The notes below the pieces were generated by a model that saw only the letters and a list, made by a program, of their open reading frames with translations, was not told the DNA's origin and made no database searches. A stretch of DNA of 64,000 nt from a bacterium (GTDB lineage Bacteria; Electryoneota; Electryoneia; Electryoneales; Electryoneaceae), in NCBI GenBank assembly GCA_963669175.1, contig OY769902.1, forward strand, positions 832,001-896,000. The letters are read 5' to 3'. Shown one piece after another: positions 7,900 through 56,236 of the stretch. Position 1 is the stretch's first letter; the number at the start of each line of letters is the position of its first letter. The translations under genes and the position numbers were made by a program.

Positions 7900-7954
7900 A
7901 AAGACCTGACGAAACGTGCTCGTCGATAATATGCACAAATTCTTGTGAGCAGCC
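7900..7954 (-). repeat. End fragment of MITE family D
   Basis: Near-identical reverse complement of 30119-30172. Confidence 0.7.
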
Positions 7955-8027
7955 CCCATTATTAATCCGCCATATGGTCTTGTTCCATATCAGTGAAAGA
8001 TCAACGATATAGTTGTAACAAAGGAGA

Positions 8028-8156
8028 TGGAAAAAGGGGACAGTTTCCTTTTCCATGAATACTTCAGGAATATTCTGCATAAGCGCGAGGAAAAGGATCC
8101 CGTCCCCTTTTCCCGGCAATCTCCATTATGACGGAATAAAATCGAGAACAGCTATA
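8028..8156 (+). repeat. MITE family C right part; EMPTY IS110 target site (AG at 8145-8146)
   Basis: ggaaaaaggggacagtttccttttcc...gacggaataaaatcgAGaacagctata, the same sequence that flanks both IS110 copies. Confidence 0.85.
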
Positions 8157-9940: not shown

Positions 9941-12289
9941 TTACACCTCGTGGTCCGTTAGCAGGGGAAACAGAAGGCGGAACGCTGCGCCGCCACGTTC
10001 CAGGTTGCGTGGGGTTATCCTCCCCTGGTACTGCTTGACAAACATGTGTACGATTGCCAACCCCAACCCCATACCCTTGCCCGGTTGACGTGTCGAATAG
10101 AAAGGATCGAACAGGTCATCCATGATCGTGGTCGGCAGTCCCGGGCCATTGTCAGCGATTTCGATCACCGCCTGTTTTCCTTCGATACCGGTAAACAGAC
10201 GGATGCGTTTGACCGGACGCTCCACTTCGTCCAGCGCGTGGATAGCATTGACTACGAGATTATTGATGATCTGTTCCATCTGCACCGGGTTGCCCTGTAC
10301 CAGGATGGGGGTGCCGGCGAGGTTCAGGTCGATACGGATGGCGTGGTTCTGGACCTGACGTGTTACCAGTGCGAGGGCGTTTTTCACGGCCAGGTTCAGA
10401 TCAACCGTGTCCAGTTGCCCCGGTTGTGGCGCTTGCCAGTAGGAGCGCATATGATCTATGATGGATGCGATCCGCTCTGAGCCGCCGGACACTTCCCGCA
10501 ACATCTCAGACACAAAGTCTGGAATTTCGCCGGGATGTTGATCACGCCAGAGGTCAATCCCTTCACTGCTTAGGCGAATAGCGTTCAGCGGCTGGTTGAT
10601 TTCGTGGGTAATGCCTGCGGCCAGTACACCGATTGAGGCTAGGCGGGAGGTTTCCTCCGCAAGCTGAATCGCTTGCCTGCGTTTTCGTTCCACATCATGC
10701 GCGGCGGTGACATCCCACAAGATACCCAGCGCAGCGGGTTGGCCTTCCCATTCCACATTGGAAATACCCAGCTCAAGCTCAAGGCGTTTACCTGCTTTCG
10801 AGCGCGCCAGGAAAGCAAGCGGCTGATCCAGGAGAGGGGATGAATCCTTCGCATGCAAGCGTGATTCCACAAGACCCTGGTCCGCATCATCCACAAAATC
10901 GGTAAGGTGGTAACTGTCAGAGCCCAGGTTCACATCATCCAGTCCGAATAGTTTTCGGAAGCCTGGATTGGCCAGCATGATCCGGCCCTGTTTCAGGACA
11001 CAGATCCCTTCCTGGGCATGTTCGAATATCCTGCGGAAACGAGACTCGCTGGTCCGTAACGCCTCCTGCGCCTGTTCACGTTCGATGATTTCATGTTCCA
11101 GCCCGGTGACAGCCTTCTTCAGTTTCACATTCAGACGGTGGATATAAACAGCCGTTGCCAATGTTGCCAGCAAAGCCAGCACAACAGCGAGGAAAACCGG
11201 CCAGTAATGACGCCACAACTCACGAGCCGACACCTCCCCGTAATGCTCGTACGGCGGGGCTTTCAGGGCCATCAGGATCTCATGCACACTCTGGTAATTC
11301 TGTGGAATCGTCCAACCGGCGCTATGGGACGCCAGCGCTGCAGGATTGCGGGGGTTCATTTGCAGCAGCCGTGAACTGACCTCTTCAGCCAGCAGGGGGT
11401 CAGTGCTCCTGAGTACCGCCATGGGCCATTCGGGGTATAACGCTGTAGAATAGATGTAGGGATAGTCGGGGTACTCCTGGTCGGTAAGGGGAATCACACG
11501 ATACCCATCGAGATGGATCTTGCCTTCCTGTACCATTCGTTCCAGGGTACCGGTTCGTATCGCCCCGATTTCGACACGGCCATCGCGCACAGCGTACACC
11601 ACCTCATCGTTGCTGTCCAGCCATTCAATGGAGCTGAAGAGTTTTTCCGGGGTATATCCAAGGCGCATCAGTTCATACTTGACATCATACCAGGCGCCAA
11701 AGGCTTCCGGGTGAACCCCGGCAAAAGAAGCGTTTTTCAGGTTTACCGTTGCTTCGCCGTTTTGACGATCAGCGCGTGCGATCAGCACACCACCGAACCC
11801 GGTAACCACTTTCCCCTCTTCCGCGTTTTTCAGCGTGGCAATACGTGTCAAACCGTATCGTTGCTCGAGCAGCACATAAAACGCCGGATTGGCCAACAGA
11901 AAATCAACGGAATCCCTGGCGACAGCAGATTCGATATCATCATACCCAAGCGGAACGATGGTGAAATAGTATCCGGGCATGGTATAGGAAAGGTAATTCG
12001 CTGTCGGGGACCATTTTTCCAGGCAGCGTTCTTTAGAGCGTTTAATCAGAACACCGATGCGCACCTTGTGCAGCGCGTCCAGCTTTGAACTGTCCGATAC
12101 CATCGGACCCTGGGTGATGGAGAAGAAAACATCCGGGGGGTAATGTGATGTTTCGGGGGGGCCGGAACTCGGGTCAGTAAAATAAGTCTGGGGATAGGGT
12201 TGCTGACCGGGCGGCTCTGCCAGACATGCACCGAAAACCAACAGTACTCCCAGCAATACTATCAGCCAAACAGCCTTGTTTCGGTACAT
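9941..12289 (-). CDS. Sensor histidine kinase with PhnD/TtrS-like periplasmic binding domain and PAS
   Basis: IGVLIKR...WSPTANYL...ANPAFYV...LYPEWP resembles the TtrS-type sensor domain. Also TM, PAS, H-box THEINQPL and HATPase. Confidence 0.88.
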   Translation of the reverse strand: MYRNKAVWLIVLLGVLLVFGACLAEPPGQQPYPQTYFTDPSSGPPETSHYPPDVFFSITQGPMVSDSSKLDALHKVRIGVLIKRSKERCLEKWSPTANYLSYTMPGYYFTIVPLGYDDIESAVARDSVDFLLANPAFYVLLEQRYGLTRIATLKNAEEGKVVTGFGGVLIARADRQNGEATVNLKNASFAGVHPEAFGAWYDVKYELMRLGYTPEKLFSSIEWLDSNDEVVYAVRDGRVEIGAIRTGTLERMVQEGKIHLDGYRVIPLTDQEYPDYPYIYSTALYPEWPMAVLRSTDPLLAEEVSSRLLQMNPRNPAALASHSAGWTIPQNYQSVHEILMALKAPPYEHYGEVSARELWRHYWPVFLAVVLALLATLATAVYIHRLNVKLKKAVTGLEHEIIEREQAQEALRTSESRFRRIFEHAQEGICVLKQGRIMLANPGFRKLFGLDDVNLGSDSYHLTDFVDDADQGLVESRLHAKDSSPLLDQPLAFLARSKAGKRLELELGISNVEWEGQPAALGILWDVTAAHDVERKRRQAIQLAEETSRLASIGVLAAGITHEINQPLNAIRLSSEGIDLWRDQHPGEIPDFVSEMLREVSGGSERIASIIDHMRSYWQAPQPGQLDTVDLNLAVKNALALVTRQVQNHAIRIDLNLAGTPILVQGNPVQMEQIINNLVVNAIHALDEVERPVKRIRLFTGIEGKQAVIEIADNGPGLPTTIMDDLFDPFYSTRQPGKGMGLGLAIVHMFVKQYQGRITPRNLERGGAAFRLLFPLLTDHEV

Positions 12290-12383
12290 GTTTCCCCCAT
12301 TTCGAATGCCCTAATATACGGTTCTGAAATGGGACGGGAAACCGGAATCAGGAGGGGGTAGTTGACCATTTGAAGGTGAACAA

Positions 12384-12574
12384 TAACTACTCTTGAAAAT
12401 AAACCGTCATGATAGTATCCGACGAACGATTCATAGGTGACTAGGAATAAGCCTATGGAAAAAGGGGACAGTTTCCTTTTCCAGAAATACTTCAGAACTA
12501 TTCTGTATAAGCGCGAGGAAAAGGATCCCGTCCCCTTTTCCCGGCAATCTCTATTATGACGGAATAAAATCGAG
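12384..12574 (+). repeat. MITE family C, interrupted by IS110 in its right TIR (remaining tip 13945-13956)
   Basis: Left end matches 54354-54412. Right part matches the empty sites at 8028-8156 and 47490-47615. Confidence 0.8.
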
Positions 12575-12661
12575 TTCCTATGTTAAACGACAGGCGCATC
12601 AAGTCGTGTTGGAACTGCTATCTTAGCAGTATTCCATTTTTCCAACACAAGGAGAAGCGCC

Positions 12662-13723
12662 ATGTCGAAGAACCAAGTTATTGCAGCGGACCGTTCATTG
12701 TCTATAGGTCTGGATGTTGATTCGCAGACTTCTTTCGCCGTTGTGCTCGACACCCAGACTGGTGAAGTGCTCTTTGAGAATCGGATCAAGCATGACTCAG
12801 CCGCTTGGGAACGCTTCTTTGCCCGTTTTCCCAACTGCCGCATGTGGGCGTGTTATGAAGCGGGCCTCACCGGCTTTGGCCTCTGTCGTTACCTGATCGG
12901 CCAAGGTGTTGACTGCCAGATCGCGCCGCCCAGCCAAGTTCCCAAAGGGGCGCAAGCGAAGCAGCAGAAGACCGATCATCTGGATGCCCTTACCTTGGCC
13001 CACATGTTCTGGACACCACCTCGTACCTGGGTACATGTCCCCACAGAACAGGAAGAGGCGGATCGTCAGTTGTCTCGCACCCGTGACCAGGTGATGAATG
13101 ATCGCGTTCGGGTCAAAAACCGAATCAAGAGTCTGCTATTGTTTCACGGTTTACAGTCACCGTTTCCGCCGCAACGCTATTGGACAAAGGAATACCGGCG
13201 CTGGTTGCGAACGTGTGATTGTCTGGCTGCGACACGGATAGCCATTGATGTTGCTCTCGATGAGCTGGAGGCCATTGAACAGCAACTCAAGGTGATCACC
13301 AAAGCGATCAAGGCGATGAATGCGTCCGCAACGTATCGGGACCGTACCCAGCGCCTGTGCCAGGTGAAAGGCGTGGGCGAGCTGACCGTGAACGCCTTCG
13401 TGACCGAGATGTATCGTCCCGAACGCTTCGCATCCGGTAAGCAAGTCGGCGCACATCTTGGCTTGACGCCGTGTGAATGGTCAAGCGCCAACACACGCCA
13501 TATGGGACACATTACCCACTGGGGACCGTCCCATCTACGAAAACTATTGGTCGAAGCTGCGTGGCGTTGGGTGCAAAAAGATCCGTATGCAAAGAAGAAA
13601 TACGATGCGATCCATGCCGGGAAAACACGGAAAGTGGCGATCGTCGCCATGGCACGAAAACTAGCCGTGATACTGTGGGCCATGCTGGTCAAAGAACAAG
13701 ACTACAATCCTGCCTGCGTATAA
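12662..13723 (+). CDS. IS110-family DEDD recombinase/transposase
   Basis: IGLDVD, CYEAG and KTDHLDA (DEDD); GVGEL; GLTPCEWSS (Tnp serine); AIVAMARKL. Confidence 0.95.
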   Translation: MSKNQVIAADRSLSIGLDVDSQTSFAVVLDTQTGEVLFENRIKHDSAAWERFFARFPNCRMWACYEAGLTGFGLCRYLIGQGVDCQIAPPSQVPKGAQAKQQKTDHLDALTLAHMFWTPPRTWVHVPTEQEEADRQLSRTRDQVMNDRVRVKNRIKSLLLFHGLQSPFPPQRYWTKEYRRWLRTCDCLAATRIAIDVALDELEAIEQQLKVITKAIKAMNASATYRDRTQRLCQVKGVGELTVNAFVTEMYRPERFASGKQVGAHLGLTPCEWSSANTRHMGHITHWGPSHLRKLLVEAAWRWVQKDPYAKKKYDAIHAGKTRKVAIVAMARKLAVILWAMLVKEQDYNPACV

Positions 13724-13927
13724 CCCCAGCACTGCTGGCAGGTAGGTAAAGCATAGATTGTGATTGAATCGTCCGATGCCATTGGGAACACGCGACCCTG
13801 GTAGTTATTCTGTTGCTTGACAACGATTCGAGTTTAGGGCGCCGCTGTTCCGTGCGAACAAAAAACTTGTGCCACGAGCACGAATAGCAGAACGGCACAT
13901 GGGACGATACAAAGGCTCTTTACACCC
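13724..13927 (+). ncRNA. Candidate bridge/seek RNA of IS110 copy 1
   Basis: Closing stem 13768-13778/13898-13908. Loops carry matches to target (TAGTTATTCT, TCGAG, GCTGTTC) and donor (TGGGAAC, ATAGCAG). Confidence 0.7.
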
Positions 13928-13956
13928 TTGACTGTTTACATAGCAGAACAGCTATA

Positions 13957-14170
13957 TTTCGCATGATAGATCGTCATCAGGCATCACATTGCGACCTGAC
14001 GACAGCGAGAGTGCTGATACCGGTGGCAGGTCACAACGCGACAATAACAGGACGAGAGGTGGTTTCAGTATCATGTGCATTCAGAAATACATTGCGAAAG
14101 CCGAAAACGGAATGTCGCGTCAAGACCTGCCACAACTTTGCCCGGATGTACAAATTCTTGTGAGGAATCC
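13957..14170 (+). repeat. MITE family D, right two-thirds
   Basis: Aligns by eye with 30237-30450 and ends in the TIR atgtacaaattcttgtgaggaa. Confidence 0.8.
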
Positions 14171-14187
14171 ATTTTAAGCGGCTGATT

Positions 14188-15051
14188 TTACCCTGCAGGT
14201 TTATCTTTCAAAAATGTCCCGTCATGGTATTCCGCAAACGCCTGCTTGAGTTCTTCCTGTGTATTCATGACAATCGGTCCACCCCAGGCGACCGGTTCAC
14301 CGTGCGGTTTTCCGGAGACAAACAGCAGGCGCATACACTGTTGGTTTGTTTTCAACGGCGCCGTTGTACACGGTCCAAGCTTATACACAAATCCCGCTTC
14401 GATCCTGCGAGCGTCCTCATGTCCCAGCGTACCCTCTCCCTCAAAGACAAACAGGAATGAACGATACCCCTTTTTCTCGGGAATCTCACAACTTGCCCCC
14501 GGTTCAAGGAAGATATCGAAATAGTCCACATCCACCAGCAAATCCCGAAGGGGACCATTTGAACCATTCAATGAACCGGACACCAGCTTGACCGTAACAC
14601 CTTCGGCAAAATCGATCGTAGTGACGTCGCTGGCTTTCACTTCACGATAAGCCGGGGCGGTCATTTTAAGTGAGGCGGGCAGCTTGACCCAGAGCTGAAA
14701 TCCACGCAAGCGTCCGTCCGTAAGCTGAGGCATCTCCTGATGAACAATCCCGCTGCCCGCAGTCATCCACTGTATGTCACCGTCACGGATTGTCCCCTCG
14801 TTACCCAGGCTGTCGCCATGTGTCACTTCGCCGTGCAGCATGTAAGTGACCGTCTCAATCCCACGGTGCGGATGCCAGGGAAACCCCTTCAAATAGTCTT
14901 CCGGCCTGTCCGAGCCGAAATCATCCAGGAGGAGAAACGGATCAAACATGGGGACTTCACGATTCCCGAACATGCGGTTCAATCGTACGCCAGCGCCTTC
15001 CAGGGTTGGTGTTCCGGCAATGGCGGTCTCAATGACACAAGGGATGGACAT
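14188..15051 (-). CDS. Pirin family protein
   Basis: DPFLLLDDF, GFPWHPHRGIETVTY, QWMTAGSGIVHQE, GPIVMNT. Start reassigned to ATG 15051. Confidence 0.93.
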   Translation of the reverse strand: MSIPCVIETAIAGTPTLEGAGVRLNRMFGNREVPMFDPFLLLDDFGSDRPEDYLKGFPWHPHRGIETVTYMLHGEVTHGDSLGNEGTIRDGDIQWMTAGSGIVHQEMPQLTDGRLRGFQLWVKLPASLKMTAPAYREVKASDVTTIDFAEGVTVKLVSGSLNGSNGPLRDLLVDVDYFDIFLEPGASCEIPEKKGYRSFLFVFEGEGTLGHEDARRIEAGFVYKLGPCTTAPLKTNQQCMRLLFVSGKPHGEPVAWGGPIVMNTQEELKQAFAEYHDGTFLKDKPAG

Positions 15052-15594
15052 GGTGACCTCGCTGGTGGTGGTTTCAACGTGTTCACAGGGAACCGTATTT
15101 TTCTGTGGCAATATATTAGCTGAGCTGTTCAGGTTGTAGTAAGGAAGGGATAGAAATAAACGTAACAGAGGTTTGTCCTGTTATAGTGTTGCTCAAACAA
15201 TATATCCCATCATGTCATTCCCGGCCTTATGCGCCGAGGCGTATTGAACGGGGATCTCGTTGTTTTTCTATTTCATGGGATAATGTTTATACAACCATAG
15301 TCGTTCCCGAAAGTCTTTTCCGTTTCAGGGTAACGGTAGTTACTTTCAGGCACAAAACATTTGTTCTGTATAGAGTTTGACTCTCTCTTATTGCTCTCTT
15401 TCGAAAACATATTTTGTTGTTTTAGCAGGCTTTAGCCTGCTCTTCTTAGCACCCGGCTTCAGCCGGGGTGAGAAGATGCAAACAACATTCTGAGCACGCT
15501 TTAGCATGCTTGCCTGGTATAAATCCTGATTCCGGAAAGCACCCTGAAGGGCGCTCACCACTTCTTTAGCACAACGAACACCCCGGCTGAAGCC

Positions 15595-16464
15595 CTGTCT
15601 CATACCCACATCTTCTGAAAGCTGTATCAGTAAAAGAGTTGTGGACATAGCATTTTTAGAATCCCGGCGGGATTCCCTATTTTAGCATAGTGTACAGGCC
15701 GTCTGTTTGGCCTGTACACTATGTCAGGTATTCTAACGAATAATCAACCCTGGAAGGGTTGCATAATACGCGATTCATATTAGTACGTTCAATAAATACA
15801 GGAAATAACGCATTTTATATTCTATACAAACCAATTGGGTGTAAATTATACGTTATGCAACCCTTCCAGGGTTGAGATAAGGTTTGATCTTTTTCGTAGG
15901 GTAGACGCTAACCCGAATATTTCATGAACGGAACATGGATATTCATCTTAACACAGTTCATATCAACACAATACAACTGATTCATACAGCATTTTTCAGG
16001 GGACAGTTTGCTCCGGTATCCCTTTGCGTGTCTATTCCCTGTTTCGCTGGCAAAATAGGCTGAGAATCGGCAACCGCCCCGGCAGGGGCAACCTGTATTA
16101 GCCCCGGGCAGCCGCCGTCAGTTTGGCGGCTACCCGGGGAGATAATGCGCATCATATATTTACTCCGGAAGGAGTAACCTGATAATTATCAAAAGTATAC
16201 AGTGGAAATATTCAGGCAACCCGCTGCCGGGGTTGGCAAGTAGCGTACATCCTATTCCCACCGTGAGCGCCAAACAGACGGCGCTGGACGGTGGGCTAAT
16301 ACAGAGAACCACTGCCGTGGTTCTTGTACTGGCCATTCCATCAAATACCAAATTTGAAATTGCATTGGTGAAATATTCGGGCTAAACAGACAGCGTCAAC
16401 CCTACGCTAAAATATACCACCCCCTCTGGGGTGGCAGAAACACGAAGATGTGAGCAAGAGACAG
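15595..16464. mobile_element. Non-autonomous element with IS50/Tn5-like 19-bp ends
   Basis: Ends CTGTCTCATACCCACATCT and (reverse complement) CTGTCTCTTGCTCACATCT. 10-bp direct repeat GGCTGAAGCC at 15585-15594 and 16465-16474. Confidence 0.82.
15912..16381. mobile_element. MITE family A, second copy (inverted relative to 277-745)
   Basis: TIR CCCGAATATTTCA and CTAA direct repeats (15908-15911, 16382-16385). Confidence 0.88.
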
Positions 16465-16571
16465 GGCTGAAGCCGGGTGCTAAAAAGAGCCTGCTAAAGC
16501 AGGCTGATAACTATTCGAATCAGCAAAAACTTTCGGGAACGACTATACAATAGTGCAATACGGAAACGGGG

Positions 16572-22691: not shown

Positions 22692-22739
22692 TGGTAGCGC
22701 GTACGGGAATCGAACCCGTGTTTCCGGCGTGAGAGGCCA
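22692..22739 (-). repeat. att site: 48-bp duplicate of the tRNA-Glu 3' portion
   Basis: Identical to 29933-29980. Confidence 0.95.
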
Positions 22740-29932: not shown

Positions 29933-30007
29933 TGGTAGCGCGTACGGGAATCGAACCCGTGTTTCCGGCGTGAGAGGCCAGCGTCCTGACCGCTGAACGA
30001 ACGCGCC
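29933..30007 (-). tRNA. tRNA-Glu (anticodon CTC)
   Basis: GGCGCGT acceptor stem, anticodon arm CTGGC-CT-CTC-AC-GCCGG, GGTTCGATTCC T-loop, encoded CCA. Confidence 0.95.
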
Positions 30008-30118: not shown

Positions 30119-30450
30119 GGCTGCTCACAAGAATTTGTACATACAATCGACGAGCACGTTTCGTCAGGTCTTGACACGATACCTTTTTCTTGTTTTTTAC
30201 CGCAATTGCAGACACCTGTCCGACTTTACGCCTGCAATTTTACATGATAGTTCGTCGTCAGGCATCGTGTTATAACCTGACGACTGCGAGAATGCTGATA
30301 TCGGTGGCAGGTCACAACGCGACAAAAACAGGGCGAGAGGCGGTTTCTGTATCATCGTTATTCAGGAAAACATTGCTAAAGCCGAAGACAGAATGTCGCG
30401 TCAAGACCTGCCACAACATTGCCCGGATGCACAAATTCTTGTGAGGAACC
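30119..30450. mobile_element. MITE family D, complete copy (332 bp)
   Basis: TIR GGYTSCTCACAAGAATTTGTRCAT and 8-bp direct repeat AAAAGTTA (30111-30118, 30451-30458). Confidence 0.85.
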
Positions 30451-47489: not shown

Positions 47490-47615
47490 ATGGCAAAAAG
47501 GGACAGTTTCCTTTTCTATGAATACTTCGGGAATATTCTACATAAGCGCGAGGAAAAGGATCCCGTCCCCTTTTCCCGGCAATCTCTATTATGTCGTAAT
47601 AAAATCGAGAACAGC
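47490..47615 (+). repeat. MITE family C right part; EMPTY IS110 target site (AG at 47608-47609)
   Basis: ...aaaatcgAGaacagc, homologous to 8028-8156. Confidence 0.85.
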
Positions 47616-47775
47616 CTTACAAGAACTGTTTTCATCAATACTCATTTTGTCCCTGGTGAATCGTGTTTGTTGGAAAGTTGACTTGGCATAAGACGTCAAG
47701 TTCAATAAAATGAGATATGTCCTGCTTGATAGTACTCGACAAGTGGAACCATTCACTTCATGAGGGAGGGGTGAT

Positions 47776-54353: not shown

Positions 54354-54652
54354 TATAGCTACTCTTGAAAATAAAGCGTCATGATAGTATCCGACGAACG
54401 ATTCATAGGTGATAGGAAAGAAGCATATGGAAAAAGGGGACAGTTTCCTTTCCCTGAAGCAAAGCCTTCCCGCTGTGAGCATGGACCGGGAAAGGTGGCT
54501 GTACCCTTTTTCTTGAGAGCAGGCAGGAATTACACGGAAAAGGGGACAGTTTCCTTTTCCATGAATGTCTCAAGCGTATTCTGTATGAGCGCGAGGAAAA
54601 GGATCCCGTCCCCTTTTCCCGGCAATCTCTATTATGACGGAATAAAACCGAG
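54354..54652 (+). repeat. MITE family C, interrupted by IS110 in its right TIR (remaining tip 56023-56034)
   Basis: Left end TATAGCTACTCTTGAAAATAAAGCGTCATGATAG is an imperfect inverted repeat of CTATTATGACGGAATAAAATCGAGAACAGCTATA. Confidence 0.8.
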
Positions 54653-54739
54653 TTCCTATGTTAAACGACAGGCGCATCAAGTCGTGTTGGAACTGCTATC
54701 TTAGCAGTATTCCATTTTTCCAACACAAGGAGAAGCGCC

Positions 54740-55801
54740 ATGTCGAAGAACCAAGTTATTGCAGCGGACCGTTCATTGTCTATAGGTCTGGATGTTGATT
54801 CGCAGACTTCTTTCGCCGTTGTGCTCGACACCCAGACTGGTGAAGTGCTCTTTGAGAATCGGATCAAGCATGACTCAGCCGCTTGGGAACGCTTCTTTGC
54901 CCGTTTTCCCAACTGCCGCATGTGGGCGTGTTATGAAGCGGGCCTCACCGGCTTTGGCCTCTGTCGTTACCTGATCGGCCAAGGTGTTGACTGCCAGATC
55001 GCGCCGCCCAGCCAAGTTCCCAAAGGGGCGCAAGCGAAGCAGCAGAAGACCGATCATCTGGATGCCCTTACCTTGGCCCACATGTTCTGGACACCACCTC
55101 GTACCTGGGTACATGTCCCCACAGAACAGGAAGAGGCGGATCGTCAGTTGTCTCGCACCCGTGACCAGGTGATGAATGATCGCGTTCGGGTCAAAAACCG
55201 AATCAAGAGTCTGCTATTGTTTCACGGTTTACAGTCACCGTTTCCGCCGCAACGCTATTGGACAAAGGAATACCGGCGCTGGTTGCGAACGTGTGATTGT
55301 CTGGCTGCGACACGGATAGCCATTGATGTTGCTCTCGATGAGCTGGAGGCCATTGAACAGCAACTCAAGGTGATCACCAAAGCGATCAAGGCGATGAATG
55401 CGTCCGCAACGTATCGGGACCGTACCCAGCGCCTGTGCCAGGTGAAAGGCGTGGGCGAGCTGACCGTGAACGCCTTCGTGACCGAGATGTATCGTCCCGA
55501 ACGCTTCGCATCCGGTAAGCAAGTCGGCGCACATCTTGGCTTGACGCCGTGTGAATGGTCAAGCGCCAACACACGCCATATGGGACACATTACCCACTGG
55601 GGACCGTCCCATCTACGAAAACTATTGGTCGAAGCTGCGTGGCGTTGGGTGCAAAAAGATCCGTATGCAAAGAAGAAATACGATGCGATCCATGCCGGGA
55701 AAACACGGAAAGTGGCGATCGTCGCCATGGCACGAAAACTAGCCGTGATACTGTGGGCCATGCTGGTCAAAGAACAAGACTACAATCCTGCCTGCGTATA
55801 A
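54740..55801 (+). CDS. IS110-family DEDD recombinase/transposase
   Basis: Translation identical to 12662-13723. Confidence 0.95.
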   Translation: MSKNQVIAADRSLSIGLDVDSQTSFAVVLDTQTGEVLFENRIKHDSAAWERFFARFPNCRMWACYEAGLTGFGLCRYLIGQGVDCQIAPPSQVPKGAQAKQQKTDHLDALTLAHMFWTPPRTWVHVPTEQEEADRQLSRTRDQVMNDRVRVKNRIKSLLLFHGLQSPFPPQRYWTKEYRRWLRTCDCLAATRIAIDVALDELEAIEQQLKVITKAIKAMNASATYRDRTQRLCQVKGVGELTVNAFVTEMYRPERFASGKQVGAHLGLTPCEWSSANTRHMGHITHWGPSHLRKLLVEAAWRWVQKDPYAKKKYDAIHAGKTRKVAIVAMARKLAVILWAMLVKEQDYNPACV

Positions 55802-56005
55802 CCCCAGCACTGCTGGCAGGTAGGTAAAGCATAGATTGTGATTGAATCGTCCGATGCCATTGGGAACACGCGACCCTGGTAGTTATTCTGTTGCTTGACA
55901 ACGATTCGAGTTTAGGGCGCCGCTGTTCCGTGCGAACAAAAAACTTGTGCCACGAGCACGAATAGCAGAACGGCACATGGGACGATACAAAGGCTCTTTA
56001 CACCC
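55802..56005 (+). ncRNA. Candidate bridge/seek RNA of IS110 copy 2
   Basis: Same sequence as 13724-13927. Confidence 0.7.
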
Positions 56006-56084
56006 TTGACTGTTTACATAGCAGAACAGCTATACCAGATATGGTTAAGTTTTTGTACTCCGCAGGAGTACGATAAGTGAGCCC

Positions 56085-56236
56085 AGGGTTGGCAAGTAGC
56101 GTACATCCTATTCCCACCGTGAGCGCCAAACAGACGGCGCTGGACGGTGGGCTAATTCAGGGAACCACTGCCGTGGTTCTTGCACTGGCCGTTCCATCAA
56201 GTATCACATTGAAATTCCAATGGTGAAATATCCGGG
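56085..56236. repeat. MITE family A, partial copy (one end)
   Basis: Matches 16230-16381 and ends GTGAAATATCCGGG followed by CTAA. Confidence 0.85.

Follow-up and report, generated by a model that had tools for sequence, protein, structure and literature searches.

The 64,000-nucleotide stretch considered here (assembly GCA_963669175.1, contig OY769902.1, positions 832,001 to 896,000 of the forward strand; hereafter the window) comes from a bacterium of the phylum Electryoneota and carries two copies of an insertion sequence (IS) of the IS110 family, each located at the end of a MITE (miniature inverted-repeat transposable element). The element is very probably a new IS1111-type IS, the guide of which matches the inverted-repeat tip shared by the MITEs residing in the same genome. 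The genome, a single contig of 5.45 Mb, was surveyed and all copies of the IS were collected and compared. The evidence covers the borders of the element, the census of its copies, the complementarity between guide and target, the gradient of site occupancy and the covariation of guides with flanks in relatives. Insertion specificity follows the complementarity to a guide pair of about 15-17 nt and not MITE identity as such. Since occupancy tracks the guide match, the MITE is the main supplier of guide-matching sites and not an obligate target.

Borders, copies and transposase of the element

The two copies in the window, at 12573-13944 and 54651-56022 on the plus strand, were identical in sequence and lay in the same orientation. 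Each consisted of a 1372-bp segment reading AGTTCC...CATAGC without target duplication, as determined by comparison of the copies. Both were flanked on the left by ...GGAATAAAA(T/C)CGAG, that is AATAAAA(T/C)CGAG, and on the right by the 12-bp tip AGAACAGCTATA; in copy 2 a C replaced the T three bases left of the core dinucleotide. Two uninterrupted versions of the site were found in the window, one reading ...AATCG-AG-AACAGCTATA at 8140-8156, and a more diverged one reading ...AATCG-AG-AACAGCCTTA at 47603-47619. By repeat search, the four flanks belonged to one 141-nt repeat family with 79-100% identity.

In the whole genome 12 copies were detected, each exactly 1372 bp long and 99.3-100% identical to one another. 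Fourteen positions varied among them, none within the guide loop described below or the element's ends, and the transposase frame was open in all 12. AG stood at both junctions in 8 copies, while 4 copies carried AG on the left and GG on the right. The repeat family hosting three of these four is a second MITE family (family B); its unoccupied ends read ...TTTCG-GG-AAC, with GG in 10 of 12 cases and AG in none, as exemplified in the window at 16531-16545. Based on the AG/GG junctions and the GG of the empty ends, the AG was assigned to the left end of the IS, without target duplication. The cut thus fell between CG and RG, 12 bp from the repeat tip. The motif CG|RGAAYWWCTAT was common to 12/12 copies in a single orientation, which places the insertions far beyond chance. 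Removal of the 12 copies in silico gave 12 reconstructed pre-insertion targets and an IS-less genome, which was used for the analysis of occupancy.

The IS encodes a transposase of 353 aa (12662-13723, plus strand) with matches to DEDD_Tnp_IS110 (PF01548, 5e-18) and Transposase_20 (PF02371, 1.4e-19), and scored 246 bits against a cut-off of 140 with NCBIfam NF033542 ('IS110 family RNA-guided transposase'). The DEDD/RuvC-like N-terminal domain, the C-terminal Transposase_20 domain and the site- and orientation-specific insertion without target duplication are traits of the IS110 family. The non-coding stretches measured 89 nt upstream and 221 nt downstream of the gene for the transposase (tnp); the longer downstream region, together with a top-strand match located 5' of the bottom-strand match, is characteristic of the IS1111 subgroup. 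The C-terminal motif read GLTPCEWSSA compared to the IS1111 motif GL-P----S(T)G, with the S in place and A for G; in the description of the subgroup by Siddiquee et al. (2024, PMC11187229), TA occurs occasionally in this motif and the transposases have about 330-350 aa. The left subterminal inverted repeat CTATGTTAAAC (12578-12588, read by eye) follows a terminal extension AGTTC, and the right one, GTTTACATAG (13934-13943), precedes the extension C. Aligned by eye, CTATGTTAAAC and CTATGT-AAAC agreed at 10 positions with one 1-nt indel, compared to the 11-13 bp of perfect or near perfect repeat expected of IS1111 elements. The extensions of 5 and 1 nt become 3 and 3 if the core is given to the right end, and 7 and 3, occasionally 6 and 3, are given as canonical. 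The element was therefore filed as IS1111-type by its organisation and guide order, and as non-canonical because of the 5/1 extensions and the indel in the subterminal repeats. The transposase was 25-26% identical to those of IS5075/IS4321 over residues 100-349, and the best identities found among plasmid IS110-family proteins were 25-34%.

Guide loop and occupancy of target sites

MITE family A accounted for seven of the 12 copies, all in its right inverted-repeat tip; three sat in a family B tip and two (C1:4337647 and C1:5243412) in non-repeated DNA, the 150-nt flanks of which had no other BLAST match in the genome. Among 88 right ends of family A, 81 were empty and 7 were filled. In the window, the left part of the MITE interrupted by copy 1 (12384-12572) starts with TAACTACTCTTG..., contains two GGAAAAGG-type hairpin modules and ends in ...GGAATAAAATCG, and its severed right tip AGAACAGCTATA lies at 13945-13956. 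The left part of the MITE split by copy 2 (54354-54650) combines the left end TATAGCTACTCTTG with three hairpin modules and ends in ...AATAAAACCG; the tip lies at 56023-56034. The first-pass annotation of the window had placed both copies in one orientation at one position of a dispersed repeat, with empty sites at 8145 and 47608, and this agreed with the identical copies and matching flanks; the fixed site stood, and the starts were corrected from 12575 and 54653 to 12573 and 54651 and the distance of the cut from the tip from 10 to 12 bp. Its view that the target is a MITE terminus, where filled and empty sites coexist, held for the fixed tip position and orientation in 10/12 copies and for the counts of family A ends; it had to be widened to two MITE families and to the 2/12 copies in non-repeat DNA. 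For these two, the proposed genome-wide count of copies, occupancy and orientation revealed unrelated surrounding DNA, as that annotation had thought damaging to its reading, while the site of about 15 nt itself was always kept.

A target-binding stem-loop of the seekRNA/bridge-RNA kind was predicted by folding at 13786-13850 in the region downstream of tnp. It has an outer stem and a 7x7 internal loop, which is closed by CCCUGG/UUAGGG around the central hairpin GUUGCUUGACAAC. The top-strand guide UAGUUAUUCU (13802-13811) is reverse-complementary to AGAATAACTA, which comprises the core and the 8 nt right of the cut, and the bottom-strand guide AUUCGAG (13826-13832) has the sense of the core together with the 5 nt to the left of the cut. 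The two guides lie on opposite sides of the internal loop and overlap at the AG/GG core, which both contain. Counting Watson-Crick and wobble pairs, the top guide paired with each of the 12 pre-insertion sites at 8-10 of its 10 positions and the bottom guide at 5-6 of 7. In the common family A target, the right side contained a C·A mismatch and a G·U wobble, and the left side a single mismatch. Copy 2 in the window, with C in place of T, has a U·G wobble instead of a U-A pair with the bottom guide, exactly at a U of AUUCGAG, in agreement with the wobble suggested earlier. A GG core forms a U·G wobble with the top guide and an A·C mismatch with the bottom guide.

To relate occupancy to the guide, every 15-mer of the IS-less genome was scored by strict matches to the ideal target defined by the guides. 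Occupied were 1/1 sites with 14/15 matches, 4/13 with 13, 5/132 with 12, 2/1099 with 11 and 0/7291 with 10. Guide-like sites were not generally enriched, with 146 sites at 12 or more matches compared to 48-175 for 20 shuffled 15-mers. In the window, the empty target AATCG-AG-AACAGCTA (8140-8154, in a family A copy) matched the ideal at 12/15 positions, and the empty target AATCG-AG-AACAGCCT (47603-47617, in a left-truncated family A copy) was poorer.

The 88 right ends of family A were then used to hold the context constant. Filled were 1/1 ends with one mismatch, 2/4 with two, 3/15 with three, 1/42 with four and 0/26 with five or more; the difference between ends with up to 3 mismatches (6/20) and those with 4 or more (1/68) was significant (Fisher P = 4e-4). 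The rare variants that are nearer to the guide than the MITE consensus (AATAACTA, AACAACTA) were all filled, and the common variants AGAACAGCAA / AACAGCAA (0/16) and AGAACAGTTA / AACAGTTA (0/9) were all empty. Among family B-type ends, the three with at most one mismatch in the right 8 nt were the three filled ones, compared to 0/12 of the others. Bases six and seven to the right of the core appeared intolerant of mismatch, while wobbles and one C·A mismatch were tolerated.

A search for close relatives found none. Those available for comparison (L016/L001, L017, L018 and L019, protein identity 48-53%) included L016-L019 from metagenome contigs, at 51-53% identity. They shared the ends AGTT(C/T)CTATG...ACATAGC, the GAATAGCAG box in the 3' region and the loop plan N8-CU, hairpin, N6-AG-U, and their flanks, which are REP-like hairpins (REP, repetitive extragenic palindrome), differed from those of the IS studied here. 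Because the automatic MAFFT alignment of six guide regions was out of register, single-sequence folds and an anchored guide-by-flank matrix were used instead; structure-filtered pattern searches for the loop were too strict and recovered only L019. In the matrix, with the core excluded, guides matched their own flanks at 10.5-11 of 14 positions and unrelated flanks at 8 at most. L018 and L019 have a common target type and cross-matched. As judged by comparison of sequences, the loop segments of the relatives have changed to match their own flanks, which is natural reprogramming. Fifteen other genomes of the same taxonomic family, one of them of the same genus, contained no IS above 48% identity and no MITE end; the repeats may be lost from these assemblies, since they are 80-96% complete and fragmented.

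Alternative explanations and the resident MITEs

Based on these results, it is highly likely that the element is an IS1111-type RNA-guided IS which the loop guides direct to the shared MITE tip. Several observations weigh against this. The terminal extensions of 5/1 nt fall outside the 7/3 (or 6/3) of IS1111 elements. The folding energy of the loop was no better than that of shuffled sequences (z -0.3 to -1.1), and an Rfam scan of 12000-14400 (E up to 1) gave no matching family; its sole match was a spurious miRNA-family match (E 0.55) on a MITE hairpin. The loop was found through its complementarity to the flanks, so the agreement between guide and flank is partly by construction. Among the relatives, the L019 guides scored slightly higher on L018 flanks than on their own, and a further relative, L005, did not fit the loop register. 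Neither a joint of right end to left end (RE-LE) nor a locus-specific excision joint was present in the contigs of four public runs, of which only assembled contigs were covered; there the IS formed its own contig, and the other joints were MITE-to-MITE adjacencies. Finally, at 12-13 matches of 15, sites in repeats were filled more often (8/36) than unique sites (1/109, P = 6e-5). This gap at equal match means that something beyond the simple match count matters: the positions may differ in weight, the T found at the ninth base right of the core in 12/12 copies may count, or the DNA context may play a part.

The same gap speaks for the alternative that the transposase, or a host or MITE-bound protein, reads the MITE repeat or hairpin directly and that the complementarity in the 3' region is incidental. 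Also in its favour, the MITEs are rich in hairpins and 10/12 copies lie in their tips. However, the copies at C1:4337647 and C1:5243412 lie in DNA without repeats by BLAST, occupancy within one MITE family tracks single-base changes at guide-paired positions, and the loop segments vary together with the flanks in relatives. In addition, elements of the family were found to be RNA-guided in the experiments described in PMC11187229 and PMC11208160. Direct recognition was thus considered improbable.

That homologous recombination or gene conversion, in place of targeted transposition, carried the IS from filled to empty MITEs is still less probable. On the left side the MITE copies agree at about 80-100% over 140-300 bp, which could support such exchange, but the right side keeps only 12 bp of the MITE, which is too short and disfavours conversion. 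Moreover, two MITE families as well as unique DNA contain filled sites, the flanks vary right to the junction, with T or C three bases to the left and AACAGC, AACAAC or AATAAC on the right, and the filled MITEs carry two or three modules. A larger composite element, in which the flanking repeat would move together with the IS, can practically be dismissed: the window copies share 300 nt spanning the left flank and the IS start, but 81 family A right ends are uninterrupted, family A flanks are absent from 5/12 IS copies, and the IS is exactly 1372 bp with sharp borders in 12/12 copies, so the repeat and the IS are distinct, as the first-pass annotation had assumed.

Under the preferred explanation, guidance to the tip by the loop, the supply of sites depends on the resident repeats. 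Elements of family A were about 194-333 bp long, and both ends were present in 53 of them. The 24-mer of the family A end had 59 uninterrupted occurrences, compared to 0 for the reversed control, and the only open reading frame (ORF) present was one of 40 aa. One form of about 310-317 bp has the left end TATAGCGATTCCCATTATTAWTCCGTCAT, which matches the right end as an inverted repeat at 24/34 positions. A second form of about 300 bp has the left end TATAGCTACTCTTGAAAATAAAGCGTCAT, with 23/34 positions, and includes the element starting at 54354, for which an imperfect inverted repeat had been proposed correctly. Shorter two-module versions exist as well, and the elements carry two or three GGAAAAGG-type hairpin modules. 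Most copies were bounded by TA-TAGC...GCWA-TA, with exceptions; such borders fit a TA duplication, and equally repeats that simply include TA. It is reasonable to call these elements MITEs.

The family B element of the window (15297-16547, plus strand, located by repeat search) consists of nested repeats without an ORF of at least 100 aa and has the ends ATAGTCGTTCCCGAAAG... and ...CTTTCGGGAACGACTATA; its unoccupied GG-core target is the one at 16531-16545. The end sequence of the family reads ...GAATCAGCAAT(A)ACTTTCG|GGAAYAACTATA, with a 30-nt repeat at 87%. Compared by eye, the tips of families B and A (TATAGTCGTTCCCGA vs TATAGCTGTTCTCGA) agreed at 12/15 positions.

The first-pass annotation also proposed to look for the autonomous transposase sharing the TATAGCT ends. 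In a search that was not exhaustive, no partner with TATAGC ends was found among the IS630-like, the four IS4/IS5-like and the Y1 transposase genes examined. The ends of the IS630-like and the four IS4/IS5-like elements were unlike the MITE ends, a scan for long elements with MITE-like ends gave none that was convincing, and DDE_Tnp_4 had no match in the genome. The Y1_Tnp genes (IS200/IS605 TnpA or like REP-associated tyrosine transposases, RAYT) numbered ten, each different and single-copy. Within 1.5 kb of the ten genes, neither the hairpin motif nor a type-1 left end occurred; one gene had a 3-mismatch match to the tip 15-mer at 519 bp and no further family A motif close by, and the other nine had no match in that range. 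The identification of the target as a REP or REP doublet (REPIN) mobilised by a RAYT was rejected, as no Y1 gene was flanked by family A motifs.

Other repeats were observed near the MITEs. An IS of 1461 bp with CTCGGTTTTG inverted repeats, a 465-aa frame and a weak DDE_Tnp_1 match was present in 7 copies outside the window (C1 1786708, 2779152, 2961119, 3458866, 3605826, 3890891 and 4287147). It generates AT-rich target duplications of 7-8 bp, and 4 of the 7 copies duplicated TATA at a MITE tip; this second IS also favours MITE ends owing to its AT-rich target preference. Further dispersed repeats adjoin MITE tips (13957-14167 and 30237-30448; 7901-7954 and 30119-30172), of which one family ends in ...ATGCACAAATTCTTGTGAGCAGCC and is fused to a family A left end at about 7950-7955, so that the region next to the tips is a nest of small repeats. 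A repeat of about 480 nt (91-97%) occurred inverted at 274-749 compared to 15908-16384, inside the family B element, with a 128-nt piece at 56083-56210, just right of IS copy 2. Identical 48-nt stretches at 22692-22739 and 29933-29980 resembled the 3' half of a minus-strand tRNA gene.

Proposed transposition route and comparison with known systems

The element would be mobilised by an RNA-guided DEDD/serine recombinase, with the guide RNA encoded in the 221-nt region downstream of tnp. It would enter the MITE inverted-repeat tip (...TCG|RGAAYARCTATA) 12 bp from its end, in a single orientation and with no duplication of the target, because the tip is the best guide-matching DNA of the genome and is common to at least two MITE families. 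One invariant guide could serve several target variants and an occasional unique site, since mismatches and G·U wobbles are tolerated. By analogy with the family, the IS would excise as a circle joining CATAGC to AGTTCC, the guide RNA would be transcribed and processed, and the strands would be exchanged at the core. The predicted RE-LE junction would bring a TTGACT -35 hexamer (13928-13933) to 17 nt from a TATGTT -10 hexamer (12579-12584), and this TTGACT-17-TATGTT promoter agrees with the consensus at 9/12 positions. A promoter scan of the integrated copy found no promoter-like site. In the integrated state, the MITE sequence ATGACG lies 17 nt upstream of the TATGTT of the IS (12549-12584, 8/12 to consensus), and the pair is a weak candidate for a read-in promoter of the transposase.

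The donor side of the guide RNA was also examined. The GAATAGCAG box (13882-13890, plus strand, found by eye) is present in the 3' non-coding region of all relatives read and is the sense of the IS right end plus the core (CATAGC+AG), which makes it a candidate donor-end guide. For the top strand of the donor, the 3' region offered no convincing complement of AGTTCCTATG, and an A-rich ...CUUG stretch before GAAUAGCAG was rejected as donor guide because it did not track the left end among relatives. In the left non-coding end, GGAACTGCTAT (12611-12621, also 54689-54699) equals the predicted circle junction ATAGC|AGTTCC exactly when read as its reverse complement; a match of 11 nt was reached by 1 of 2000 shuffles, and a match of 6-11 nt occurred at equal offset in 4/5 relatives. 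The complementarity of this stretch extends to the AUAGCAG box conserved in the 3' region. GGAACTGCTAT could be a donor guide, a junction guide or a regulatory pairing.

The junction dinucleotides bear on the polarity of the exchange. At GG target cores, AG was on the left and GG on the right in 4/4 insertions (C1 1687173, 3525644, 4232930 and 5243412), and the opposite was never seen. AG-left/GG-right junctions were also found for L018 and L019, the target cores of which were not confirmed by empty sites. Judging from this pattern, strand exchange or its resolution may have a fixed polarity in the lineage, with numbers too small for proof.

Repeats as landing sites are the rule for the IS110/IS1111 family. 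IS4321 and IS5075 sit in the inverted repeats of Tn21, ISPa11 and IS621 sit in REPs, and attC sites are also known targets. IS4321/IS5075 resemble the present element in being IS1111-type and in entering another transposon's terminal inverted repeat at a fixed point and in a fixed orientation, but their host is a large autonomous Tn3-family transposon and not a MITE. In Coxiella burnetii, 20 of 21 copies of IS1111 are in a REP inside QMITE2 according to the account of Wachter et al. (2018, PMC5896051). As here (10/12), nearly all copies are thus in a MITE family, with empty and filled MITEs side by side; differently, IS1111 in Coxiella targets a GTAG REP palindrome within the MITE, while the present target is a terminal inverted-repeat tip that occurs in a second family too. 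The transposases are distant.

Also close are the seekRNAs of ISEc11, ISKpn4, ISPst6 and ISPa11 (Siddiquee et al. 2024, PMC11187229). As presented there, the top-strand match comes first in IS1111-type seekRNA, the reverse of the IS110 type, and natural reprogramming was shown for ISEc11 and ISXne4. These elements share with ours the long non-coding region downstream of tnp and the naturally reprogrammed relatives. Compared to them, the terminal extensions are 5/1 instead of 7/3, the subterminal repeat has a 1-nt indel, and the guide RNA is a predicted one. For IS621, both guides of the bridge RNA include the core dinucleotide (Durrant et al. 2024, PMC11208160), and ISPpu9/ISPpu10 target REPs (PMC12288879). 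As far as these accounts describe, IS621 and ISPpu9/ISPpu10 resemble the present element in that both strands are read by two core-including guides on an internal loop, in the circle-junction promoter (predicted here), and in the preference for genomic repeats. IS621 differs in having its guide RNA upstream, within the left end, and its guides in the opposite order, and no clear donor-binding loop was delimited in the present element.

No report of an IS110/IS1111 IS aimed at a MITE inverted-repeat tip was found in open-access papers and preprints. The accepted working mode of the family is unchanged by the finding. Its target range is extended to an inverted-repeat tip common to several MITE families, in a phylum without described elements of this kind. 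With one invariant guide facing 88 + 15 near-cognate sites that differ by single bases, the genome also offers a natural record of mismatch tolerance. Tentatively, and with considerable doubt, the guide may have been selected to match an inverted-repeat tip that the MITE families cannot change without losing their transposase, which would make the IS a hyperparasite of the MITE superfamily. If so, the IS would gain a renewable, harmless and evolutionarily constrained landing pad, and each insertion would split the repeat 12 bp from its tip and retire that MITE copy.

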